Shown piece by piece: positions 11,753 to 14,745 of a stretch of 64,000 bases of DNA. The stretch is from Candidatus Poribacteria bacterium (GTDB taxonomy: Bacteria > Poribacteria > WGA-4E > PCPOR2b): positions 992,001 to 1,056,000 of the forward strand of contig OY762266.1 of assembly GCA_963665285.1 (NCBI GenBank), written 5' to 3'. The position numbers were made by a program, and so were the translations under genes. Numbering within the stretch: the stretch's first letter is position 1; each line of letters starts with the position of its first letter. The notes under the pieces were generated by a model, which worked only from the letters and a program-made list of their open reading frames with translations, was not told where the DNA came from and made no database searches.

Positions 11753-11781
11753 TTGCAGCAATGATTAAACTTTGATATGAT
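11753..11781 (+). promoter_or_regulatory. sigma70-type promoter of the nuclease gene
   Basis: TTGCAG, 17 bp spacer, TATGAT with extended -10 TG; AAGGAG RBS before GTG 11814. Confidence 0.6.
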
Positions 11782-11813
11782 GTGCTTCATTAAATTAGCA
11801 GAAGGAGAATATC

Positions 11814-12188
11814 GTGGTTAACTTTACACATGATCTGGAATTTGGTGAGGCCGGAGAAGAACAGGTTAGAAATTTGCTTTCATCGGATCCTTTTACCGTT
11901 GAGGTCAAGCGAGATCATCTAGTTTCACGGACAGGAAACATAGCGATAGAAATATCTTTCAAAAATGCACCAAGTGGCATAATGACAACCACCGCTGACT
12001 GGTGGGCTTTCGTATTGTCAGGTTACGAGTACAGAGACGAGGTTATCATTTTCATACAAACAGAGAGATTAAAAAAAATAGTGAGTAAATATAAAGGATT
12101 AAATGGGACCACACGTGGTGGAGATCGGGATACAGCTGAGTTGGTATTGGTCCCTTTGCCCGAAATATTCGATAAAATCCAAATCTAA
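11814..12188 (+). CDS. Small PD-(D/E)XK-superfamily nuclease-like protein
   Basis: G..GE helix, VEVKRD motif, TGNIAIE...PSGI..T.ADWW pattern resembling small phage-type nucleases; AT-rich codon usage. Confidence 0.65.
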   Translation: MVNFTHDLEFGEAGEEQVRNLLSSDPFTVEVKRDHLVSRTGNIAIEISFKNAPSGIMTTTADWWAFVLSGYEYRDEVIIFIQTERLKKIVSKYKGLNGTTRGGDRDTAELVLVPLPEIFDKIQI

Positions 12189-12306
12189 CGCAAGTTGTCC
12201 TCCAAAGTTTCAACGAGGCGATAGGTACAATTTGTGTTATCATAGACTAATATCGACCATATTTTTCAAGATTCCTCAAGGCACACTCAAAGAAAGGAAT
12301 TGACGC

Positions 12307-12693
12307 ATGTACACAACCGTTATTGTTCCATTTGAATTTTATGCAAGCCATAGCCTCTCCGTCCGGGAAAAACCCCACAACCACTATTGGACGCTAAAAC
12401 TGTTCGTCAGAGGCACCCCGACGAATGGCATGGTAATCGACATTCTCAAGCTGCGCCAACTCACGGATCCATACGTCGAAAAACTTGCCGATACCTACCT
12501 TAACGAAAATCCTGTCCTTACTGAGGAACAAGCAGGTTGTCCCACCTGTGAAATGCTCGCTGCCTATTTCTACACACACGTCTCCCAAGCGCTAGAAGAA
12601 TTAGCCGTAGATGCTGAACTCAAAGCTATCGAAGTTGAACTGCGTGAGTTGGAAGGGAAGGAGTGGGGAGCGGCGCGCTTAGAGGCAAACTAA
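12307..12693 (+). CDS. QueD/PTPS-like T-fold protein (EX2HxH type)
   Basis: FEFYASH, REKPHNH, GMVID, YLNE and PTCEMLA motifs. No catalytic Cys before HxH. Confidence 0.85.
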   Translation: MYTTVIVPFEFYASHSLSVREKPHNHYWTLKLFVRGTPTNGMVIDILKLRQLTDPYVEKLADTYLNENPVLTEEQAGCPTCEMLAAYFYTHVSQALEELAVDAELKAIEVELRELEGKEWGAARLEAN

Positions 12694-12694
12694 A

Positions 12695-14542
12695 ATGACC
12701 GACATGTCAGTTTATAAAACGACAGTCCGGCGGAAGGCTGGCAGGATTGGCGAACTCCACTTGCAACGTAACGGGATAGCACTCCAACTATTATCAACGC
12801 CTATTCTGTACCCCGTTCTTTCATTCATGACTAGCACTAGTACAAACGGGGGTGGGATATGGAAATACCTGCTGAAAGATGTTATGAGACACGACGTGCC
12901 GATCCTCTCGCAGGTATTGCATTTCCTCGATTTCAATCTCACAAGCAAAAACATCAAGTATTGGCGAGAGCAGCCGATGCGTGAGCGTTACCGAGACACC
13001 AACGGTCCCTTTGATGCTCCGATGTTTTTGGATTCAGGTGGGTTCAAACTGCTTTACAACGCTGGACTGTCCCTCTCGGAATTCGGTATCCGTAAGGAGA
13101 CAGAGGCGGATGATATTCTGGCGTTTCAACTCGACTGCGGTGGAGACATCATCGCCTCCTTAGATTATCCACTGCCCCCCGGTCTCGTCCGCTCCGAAGC
13201 AGAAATCCGCATGGATCGGAGCCTTCAGAATGCATTTCGGGTTGCAGAGCGGCTCGCAGAGATGGACAATCCGCCTTACCTGTATATCTGCTGTCATGGA
13301 CAATCTAGAGAAGATATTCAAAACTATGTCAATCAGGTTTTTGACCGGCTGACGGGGGTACTCCCCTCCTTCGGACTTGCAGTCGGCTCGCTCGTACCAT
13401 TGCGGGGCGACAACGACTCGGAGGTGCTATCACGGATATGCGGTGTACTCGACGCCATTCCTGAGTCAGCACGAGATCTGACGCCTATCCACGCCTTCGG
13501 GATCTCTGGCAACCTAACCCCGATACTCGCTTACATGGGGGTCGATAGTTTTGACAGCACAAGTTATATTCAAGCAGCCCGCAGTCAGGCTTATTCACAT
13601 CCGGAGACAGGGAAGAAACTCAAGATTCTGGAGTTAGATTCAATGGAGTGTACTTGCCGTGTTTGCCGGGAAACCTCTCTCGAGGAGATGCAACAGGCAT
13701 TCATGGAGGCGAAAAGCTATCAACGCACCTCAACGGGACAATATAAGAGCTACTACTACGCAAAAATCGCGCTCCACAATTTTGAGATGGAAGCCGAAAC
13801 CCTTAAACATATGGTGGATGCAATTGAAGCCGACAACTCGCTTGAAGCACTAGTTGATCACGCCTCAAAGGCACGTGGCGTTCGAGAAGCAGTCAACTGG
13901 CTAATTGAAAACAGGGATGAATTTGCAGCGAAGATGTCAAAAACCGTTGTCCCAGTCCCCAAACGTGCCGCAGCTCAACCCGCGCAGCAAACCCTTTCAC
14001 TGAACTACACTCCCGACTCATTTTCAATCCCGCCAGATTATCAGCCACCTCCAGAAAAACGGATTCTTTTGACAATCCCCTGTGCTGGAAAGAAGCCGTA
14101 TTCCCTATCGCGCACCCATTCTATTGTGAAAACCAAACTCGACACAGCGTTTGGTGAGGATCACCGGTTCATCCACAAAATCACCCTTTCGGGACTTTAT
14201 GGTCCTGTCCCCGAAGAATTTGAATCGGAGGAGGCGGTAGTCCACTACGATTTTCAACTGTTACCCCGCAACACCACCCAGATTAAACTCGGTGCAGATC
14301 GGTTCAACGCCTATCTTGATAAACATAGACGACACTACGAACTAATTGTCGGTTACGCTACGAGTAACGCCTACCGCAAGGTCTTGCAACTAGTCCAAAA
14401 ACATCATCAGGATTTTATCTTGCTGCCAACCAAACCAAAACAGAAGCGGCTTTCGGAGTTTTTTCGACATATCCACCTCGACGAACTTATAGAGGTATTG
14501 TCCAGCGTTTTGGACGAAGAAACGGGACAGGATTCCAATTGA
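12695..14542 (+). CDS. tRNA-guanine transglycosylase (TGT/DpdA)-family protein fused to a C-terminal ArcS-like (DUF5591-type) domain
   Basis: GRIGEL...STP N-terminus, FLDSGGF, LDYP, IHAFG, DSFDST, CTCRVC...H zinc motif. C-terminal ILLTIPCAGKKPYSLSRTH...LYGPVPEEFE. Confidence 0.85.
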   Translation: MTDMSVYKTTVRRKAGRIGELHLQRNGIALQLLSTPILYPVLSFMTSTSTNGGGIWKYLLKDVMRHDVPILSQVLHFLDFNLTSKNIKYWREQPMRERYRDTNGPFDAPMFLDSGGFKLLYNAGLSLSEFGIRKETEADDILAFQLDCGGDIIASLDYPLPPGLVRSEAEIRMDRSLQNAFRVAERLAEMDNPPYLYICCHGQSREDIQNYVNQVFDRLTGVLPSFGLAVGSLVPLRGDNDSEVLSRICGVLDAIPESARDLTPIHAFGISGNLTPILAYMGVDSFDSTSYIQAARSQAYSHPETGKKLKILELDSMECTCRVCRETSLEEMQQAFMEAKSYQRTSTGQYKSYYYAKIALHNFEMEAETLKHMVDAIEADNSLEALVDHASKARGVREAVNWLIENRDEFAAKMSKTVVPVPKRAAAQPAQQTLSLNYTPDSFSIPPDYQPPPEKRILLTIPCAGKKPYSLSRTHSIVKTKLDTAFGEDHRFIHKITLSGLYGPVPEEFESEEAVVHYDFQLLPRNTTQIKLGADRFNAYLDKHRRHYELIVGYATSNAYRKVLQLVQKHHQDFILLPTKPKQKRLSEFFRHIHLDELIEVLSSVLDEETGQDSN

Positions 14543-14745
14543 ATACTACCAAAACCAAACGTCATGAAGAGATCGGGCTGTGTCAAACCTGTCAGCACGT
14601 GAAAGTAATCGAGAACGCTAACCGGAGCCGTTTCTACCTGTGCCTTCTCTCAGACTCCAACGCCGACTTTCAGAAGTACCCACGCCTACCTGTGCTGACC
14701 TGCGCCGGCTACCAGCCCCAGAAGCAAACAAGCCATCAGAAATAA
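14539..14745 (+). CDS. Small Cys-rich protein (CxxC...C...C), putative metal-binding
   Basis: TTG start overlaps the upstream TGA. GLCQTCQH...FYLC...KYPRLPVLTCAGY pattern. Confidence 0.7.
   Translation: MNTTKTKRHEEIGLCQTCQHVKVIENANRSRFYLCLLSDSNADFQKYPRLPVLTCAGYQPQKQTSHQK

Follow-up and report, generated by a model that had tools for sequence, protein, structure and literature searches.

Do four neighbouring, co-oriented genes in the genome of a Candidatus Poribacteria bacterium (assembly GCA_963665285.1, contig OY762266.1, positions 992,001 to 1,056,000; this stretch of 64,000 nucleotides is referred to as the window) act together as a 7-deazaguanine-based defence cassette, as a sequence-only reading had proposed, or does such a function reside in one of them? 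The genes encode a small nuclease-like protein, a QueD-like protein, a fusion of a TGT domain to the ArcS catalytic core and a Cys-rich microprotein (Table 1). These four neighbours do not form one conserved defence unit. The 615-aa fusion is genuine and uncharacterised, and probably represents a variant form of DNA modification by 7-deazaguanine. We tentatively regard it as a one-chain writer of 7-deazaguanine in DNA, which is an orphan in Poribacteria and beside which the nuclease is a recent arrival that is not needed. From the domains, the intact residues, the predicted fold, the precursor genes and the neighbourhoods of relatives we infer DNA as the probable substrate and, most likely, a dG+-type base as the product.

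A domain search of the fusion gave TGT and DUF5591 only, with no PUA/C2 tRNA-binding domain. The features of the TGT superfamily are all present (three aspartates, a TIM barrel and a CxCxxC...H zinc site), and both the acid/base and the nucleophile aspartate (D113 and D287) are kept. The ArcS catalytic core (DUF5591) comprises residues 449-575 and contains, at residues 462-475, the motif PC-x3-KPY-x2-S-x2-H, which has been described as the C1 motif of ArcS (10.1101/2023.04.13.536721). In the predicted model (pLDDT, the predicted local distance difference test, 94) the first 420 residues superimpose on ArcTGT of P. horikoshii (1IQ8) with a Z-score of 37.4 and a root-mean-square deviation of 2.7 over 346 residues. 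The pocket sequence GSLVP aligns with GGVVP of ArcTGT, reported to be the preQ0-selective pocket (PMC5699537). His201 is found where tRNA TGTs have Gln, and His181 has been assigned the corresponding role in DpdA of Salmonella (PMC10164549). This likeness is weak evidence, because one Poribacteria DpdA apparently has Gln at the equivalent position. The DSGG, LDYP and ArcS motifs, including the catalytic aspartates, are kept in all 73 full-length fusions compared, while the His and zinc motifs are missing in four haloarchaeal members. The protein falls short of three established family models: it scores 19.1 bits against the DpdA model NF041059 (cut-off 200), 82.5 bits against the ArcTGT equivalog TIGR00432 (350 needed) and 20 bits against TIGR00430 for bacterial queuine Tgt (307 needed), its pocket is not of the preQ1 type, and the DpdA model of PADLOC is matched at E 7e-5 only.

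A role of the fusion as housekeeping tgt was ruled out by its separate grouping in the tree and by a separate canonical tgt at C1:585807 of the window's genome (G000), which scores 533 against TIGR00430. As the sequence-only reading had supposed, the TGT-like gene is a non-housekeeping paralogue. The tree was a quick one, built from the 73 fusions and 8 outgroups with long branches, with split or truncated fusions, true ArcTGT and ArcS left out, and its support is confined to two points, namely that the fusions group together and that Poribacteria have two paralogue clades. The same genome contains queC, queF, folE with a tandem PTPS gene and an intein-bearing queE, all encoded away from the locus. 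Since the canonical genes of the preQ0 pathway are present, the host can probably make preQ0. No YhhQ match was obtained in this genome, and a CxxxHGH QueD was not found among its three PTPS matches. The tandem two-domain PTPS, which precedes folE (L006:1072-1905, G000:C1 near 1539800), has a Cx5HGH motif and is PTPS-II-type. The queE gene (C1:2915170-2916843; L372:352-2025) has its CxxxCxxC radical-SAM motif interrupted in frame by about 329 additional aa; this insert carries a LAGLIDADG-like domain and is most likely an intein.

Three known systems resemble the fusion in part. When DpdA2 of Vibrio phage nt-1 was combined with the DUF5591-only protein ArcS2, dG+ was formed in plasmid DNA of E. 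coli (10.1101/2023.04.13.536721 = PMC10516641). Here too a putative DNA-type transglycosylase is paired with an ArcS C1 core bearing the motif given above; in contrast, the fusion is one polypeptide, is cellular and chromosomal, has an ArcTGT-like and not a DpdA2 barrel, and its activity is a predicted one. As in the bacterial Dpd system (dpdA-K of Salmonella Montevideo; DpdA 7UI4), a TGT paralogue accompanies a canonical tgt, the three aspartates are identical and the base pocket contains a His; moreover, relatives of the fusion sit with DpdJ/K-like genes, YhhQ and queD/E. The fusion differs from Dpd by failing the DpdA model, by the lack of DpdB, by an ArcS core instead of DpdC and by a genome without the restriction operon. 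Indeed, no PF14072 (DpdB) match was present in the 99%-complete genome, nor was a tblastn match obtained with a Poribacteria DpdB query, which bears out the proposed distinction from canonical Dpd. A search of the window's genome for DpdJ/K-like genes was likewise negative, and a single DUF6884 gene lies far from the locus. Within the locus itself neither dpdB, dpdC nor dpdD-K was found, and, as had been noted, no queC, queE or folE open reading frame (ORF). Archaeal ArcTGT (TgtA, 1IQ8) with ArcS provides the closest fold, a preQ0-type pocket and an intact ArcS motif, whereas the fusion holds both predicted activities in one chain, has no C2/PUA domain and occurs in a bacterial host without RaSEA (no TIGR01210 match in the window's genome). 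In the literature dG+ has been reported in phage DNA, and dPreQ0 and dADG in bacterial DNA via multi-gene Dpd islands that need DpdB. The articles searched gave no prior description of a TGT-ArcS fusion or of the 124-aa nuclease. If the assignment is true, a single-chain writer would bring dG+ chemistry into the genomes of cells, across at least four phyla, and might serve as a tool for restriction-resistant DNA.

The neighbourhoods of relatives were surveyed for the best 80 of 125 genome loci, 27 of them from non-Poribacteria, namely cyanobacteria, Chloroflexota and haloarchaea; each neighbour family was represented by a single scanned member, and loci from related genomes do not count as independent. 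A neighbour with a function in defence or DNA modification was present within about three genes in 22 of the 27 non-Poribacteria loci, and two of the remaining five are contigs too short to judge. These neighbours include GmrSD_N with HEPN (9 loci), a DpdJ-like helicase (6), a DpdK-like PLD protein (5) and YhhQ (4), as well as DISARM DrmAB, NurA-HerA, DruE-like helicases, and queE/queD with DUF6884 and a second TGT. The same kind of island is carried by a haloarchaeal plasmid; on the Haladaptatus plasmid (L374) three TGT-family genes lie within 14 kb together with genes for a helicase, a PLD protein, DUF6884 and ATPases. The association of the TGT-like gene with DNA modification and defence, part of the original proposal, is thus seen in the contexts that its relatives occupy. 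Together with the dG+ precedent of nt-1 DpdA2/ArcS2, these neighbourhoods make DNA the likeliest substrate of the fusion, and the missing PUA domain and the separate canonical tgt also speak for a writer.

Within the Poribacteria phylum, 47 of 151 genomes have a fusion match better than 1e-90. According to the tree there are two paralogue clades within the window's family and a neighbouring family, and the paralogous fusions of the two sites are only 65-66% identical. The clade of the window is linked to the QueD-like gene; the second clade is linked to an N6/N4 methyltransferase, found in 14 of 20 loci and accompanied by a nuclease that is MutH-like (6 loci) or of the DUF6996/7 type (2 loci). 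A pair of methyltransferase and restriction endonuclease was rejected as an obligatory partner, because the methyltransferase of the second site also occurs widely without the fusion: 54 of the 151 genomes have it, and 29 of these belong to a genus of 38 genomes that lacks a full-length fusion. The genome of the window also encodes a GmrSD_N (DGLQR) and HEPN pair (C1:3857078-3858861), 2.85 Mb from the locus and 51% and 40% identical to the pair found 3' of the fusion in cyanobacteria. This cyanobacterial-type pair occurs in only 2 of the 151 genomes and was therefore rejected as a general partner acting in trans. For most Poribacteria copies of the fusion no defence partner is conserved, as would suit an orphan writer, and nucleases of several kinds were found in the slot upstream of the fusion.

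The TGT barrel of such a writer would excise guanine via a covalent D287 intermediate and put in preQ0, supplied by folE, a PTPS, queE and queC of the host. The ArcS core, with its C463 motif, would then add an amine to the nitrile to give dG+ or a related amidine. In Poribacteria the writer may have been inherited mostly vertically and, after loss of its island partners, may leave an orphan mark comparable to that of an orphan methyltransferase. The QueD-like gene would be a remnant of the ancestral island, and the slot upstream of the writer seems to acquire nucleases repeatedly, the 124-aa phage-family nuclease being presumably its newest arrival.

Table 1 Features of the fusion locus; positions are counted from the first nucleotide of the window
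Feature	Position	Strand	Details
TGT-ArcS core (TGT-DUF5591) fusion, 615 aa	12695..14542	+	TGT E 8e-16, DUF5591 E 2e-13; D113, D157, H201, L233-V234 pocket, D287, Zn C319/C321/C324/H361
PD-(D/E)XK-like nuclease, 124 aa	11814..12188	+	GTG start; phage family phrog_13596; invariant E30-x-K32, E46; GC 40.5% (neighbour genes 49-51%)
PTPS/QueD-family T-fold protein, 128 aa	12307..12693	+	PTPS family E 3e-15; His triad H15, H24, H26; E82
Cys-rich microprotein, 68 aa	14539..14745	+	resident gene upstream of argD; widespread bacterial hypothetical family
Promoter-like site TTGCAG-17-TATGAT	11753..11781	+	upstream of nuclease gene; read by eye; below promoter-scan threshold
Insertion, ~900 bp	11341..12240		two dispersed repeats, palindrome, nuclease gene; absent at orthologous site in sisters G050 and G084
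Miniature inverted-repeat transposable element (MITE)	14917..15053		8-bp target duplication, empty site in sister genome, ~21 copies; unrelated to cassette

The arrangement of the locus was in part as first described: four ORFs are found on the plus strand, the first two being 118 bp apart and the next pair 1 bp, while the last two overlap by 4 bp, so that the QueD-like, TGT-like and microprotein genes are indeed separated by 1 bp or overlap. No ORF starts at position 11753, which had been given as the start of the cassette; a putative promoter-like site begins there instead. The locus is flanked by a 636-aa gene with no assigned function on one side and by argD on the other. A public contig (4,985 bases) spans positions 10500-14945 with zero differences, and the four-gene layout is therefore not an assembly artefact. 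The ratio of nonsynonymous to synonymous substitution rates (dN/dS) against relatives is 0.02-0.30 across all four genes, indicating purifying selection. Nevertheless the claim of a single cassette had to be given up: a conserved four-gene unit was ruled out by the independence of the microprotein, the decay of the atypical, dispensable QueD-like gene and the variable neighbourhoods, and of the 47 genomes that match the fusion strongly 44 have no copy of the nuclease. The analysis of this locus contributes by taking the cassette apart and by linking the nuclease to the fusion, the latter being its new and testable point.

The nuclease matches phrog_13596 with E 9e-26, a family with at least 580 viral matches, and its relatives P0280-P0285 are 52-66% identical. 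E30, K32 and E46 are invariant in 20 of 20 aligned sequences. The top five structure matches of the predicted model are all PD-(D/E)XK nucleases, although with weak Z-scores (5.0-5.5); among them are NhoI, PvuII and I-Ssp6803I, with which the protein shares the E-x-K motif. An alignment search detected the nuclease in 3 of 176 Poribacteria genomes. In all three it immediately precedes a fusion gene, at two paralogous sites, and to this extent the pairing of nuclease and TGT-like gene in the sequence-only reading is supported. In G078 and G101 it adjoins the other fusion paralogue on the upstream side, in the slot which elsewhere holds the pair of methyltransferase and restriction endonuclease. 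Between these two genomes the synonymous divergence (dS) of the nuclease is 0.17 compared to 0.54-0.80 for six neighbour genes, which indicates that the nuclease moved laterally. The copy of the window differs from both by a dS of 0.40-0.44, while that of the fusion paralogues next to it has reached saturation. Together these data show a low-GC gene of a phage family, apparently acquired recently by lateral transfer.

It is conceivable that fusion and nuclease constitute a minimal restriction-modification system, in which the fusion marks a G-containing motif, the nuclease cuts the unmarked motif and is kept only together with an active writer. This would explain that the nuclease, wherever it occurs, directly precedes an intact fusion at sites whose paralogues are so divergent, that no methyltransferase lies beside it in any of the three genomes, and that at the second site it replaces the methyltransferase, with or without restriction endonuclease, of 14 of 20 clade relatives. 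The nuclease has a dN/dS of 0.24-0.30, and among 160 viral or metagenome loci of its family 11 contain a methyltransferase, in five cases an N6/N4 enzyme directly upstream which overlaps or precedes the nuclease gene. However, the many fusion genomes without the nuclease argue against such a pair, as does the finding that none of the 160 loci contains a TGT or que gene; the window nuclease differs in this respect from its uncharacterised phage relatives. Furthermore, the two second-site copies share one transfer, as their low dS shows, leaving about two independent placements rather than three, and the fold support is weak (Z 5.5). We consider this explanation unlikely, and a passenger in a nuclease hot-spot is likelier. 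A comparably low probability is given to the combined scheme in which the fusion by itself, needing no DpdB, would place an archaeosine-type base, dG+ or a lysine-amidine adduct, in the chromosome and the nuclease of marine phages was recruited at two loci as cognate restriction enzyme in place of a methyltransferase-based pair; the lysine adduct was considered because RaSEA is absent. If the nuclease is a partner, a new restriction-modification pair would be seen forming from an orphan writer and a phage gene, which would be the smallest 7-deazaguanine restriction-modification system, caught during assembly.

Several observations weigh against an orphan DNA writer with an unneeded nuclease. 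The fusion barrel is much nearer to the tRNA-acting ArcTGT (E 7.6e-35) than to DpdA 7UI4 (E 7e-4); the latter was not among the 50 matches listed in either fold search, which is no test of its absence. DpdA of Salmonella has been reported to require DpdB and ATP (PMC10164549), and the genome of the window has no match to DpdB or to DpdJ/K-like proteins. No full-length relative of the fusion was found in viral contigs or phage records. A loose hot-spot does not readily account for the finding that all three nuclease copies, from two sites, adjoin a fusion, and the long solitary retention of the fusion also fits a role on RNA.

Such a role would be that of a one-chain tRNA enzyme in which the activities of ArcTGT and ArcS are joined to form archaeosine, or preQ0-lysine, at G15 of bacterial tRNA. 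The best match in both sequence and structure is ArcTGT, many Poribacteria retain the fusion by itself among housekeeping genes, and ArcS has been reported to accept minimal RNA substrates (PMC11298593). We nevertheless regard a tRNA enzyme as rather unlikely, since the C2/PUA tRNA-binding domains and a RaSEA match are lacking and the fusion was deleted outright in 4 of 20 genus genomes. Moreover, haloarchaea have their own ArcTGT and ArcS, to which the fusion is an addition located in defence islands and on plasmids.

The nuclease alone might be a selfish, free-standing endonuclease of the homing type, which came from marine phages and landed beside target genes with no functional tie to the modification. 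A relative in pelagiphage HTVC019P sits between DNA polymerase and exonuclease, a position at which T7-like phages carry mobile endonucleases, and low GC content, lateral spread and the weak fold match to I-Ssp6803I (Z 5.0) agree with this origin. Homing is still quite improbable: no co-conversion tract was seen between G078 and G101, where the synonymous difference reaches 0.30-0.40 in the nearest segments of both flanking genes compared to 0.08-0.10 in the nuclease, and the two nuclease sites share no flanking homology. That the fusion acts on invaders, by exchanging or derivatising guanines or 7-deazaguanines in phage DNA or by joining preQ0 to protein lysine as a tag for partner nucleases, is very improbable, for although its partners vary widely between phyla, ArcS of T. 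kodakarensis has been described as a lysine transferase (PMC11298593) and a weak match to CBASS Cap10 exists (E 4.7e-5), YhhQ and queD/queE beside several relatives point to a steady preQ0 supply for a writer, and the DpdJ/K-like neighbours serve restriction in a system that marks self (PMC11888242).

The QueD-like protein carries the motif ExxHNH (R-E-K-P-H-N-H), without Cys, in place of CxxxHGH, the motif reported for QueD (PMC5041015), and fails TIGR03367 (35 bits, 89 needed). The motif ExxH[N/T]H matches ExxHGH of PTPS-III except for the Gly. PTPS-III is also marked by a folate context; here deazaguanine islands form the context, and a folB gene lies in the window. The DpdL motif LxxxHRHxF (10.1101/2023.04.13.536721) is not found in the alignment. 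A relative with 65% identity lies within a dpdA-dpdB...queE-queC island (L274), which suggests that the QueD-like clade is tied to deazaguanine islands acting on DNA. At this site a full-length fusion is present in 12 genomes of the genus, of which only four have an intact QueD-like gene, and in eight this gene is broken or missing. It thus appears to be an ancestral neighbour of the fusion, often decayed and dispensable. In the L274 island (G052:C358) dpdA is split in two ORFs and is accompanied by dpdB, an inverted Cys-less QueD-like gene, queE and queC; its QueE is 68-79% identical to that of the window's genome.

The microprotein is not part of the modification unit. It is present in 19 of 20 genus genomes, including four without any fusion and three with the fusion deleted at this site, and is independent because it is kept where the fusion is lost. 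Look-alikes occur in other phyla.

In the blastn comparison with the sister genomes, which have about 35 bp in place of the insertion, the alignment stops at 11340 and restarts at 12241. The repeats within the insertion are present in about 43, 23 and 53 copies in the genome. MITE-like repeats had been described on both sides of the cassette; the right element is a true MITE, while the left repeats (about 43 and 53 copies) belong to other families and do not bracket the genes together with it. The only element common to both sides is a REP-like 26-nt palindrome with about 53 copies genome-wide, located at 15146-15171 and 11517-11544. The repeats do not bracket or define a mobile unit, and a composite mobile element bounded by MITEs was ruled out by the unrelated, genome-wide repeat families. 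In sister genomes a promoter-like site TTGACA-17-TAGACT precedes the QueD-like gene (L059:7512-7546, G050; read by eye), the first hexamer of which was replaced by the insertion in the window.

Two further arrangements of TGT paralogues were observed in the survey. A second, uncharacterised paralogue of about 400 aa recurs in Poribacteria (L278-L281 and L287, in G050, G111, G007, G061 and G110) in a conserved cassette with a BrxC/D-like ATPase and two to three genes of no assigned function, to which three of the five loci add DUF6884. In L282 and L283 (G107, G130) a DpdC-like DUF6884 domain is joined to a DpdA-type TGT in one chain, with a UvrD or HerA helicase adjoining.

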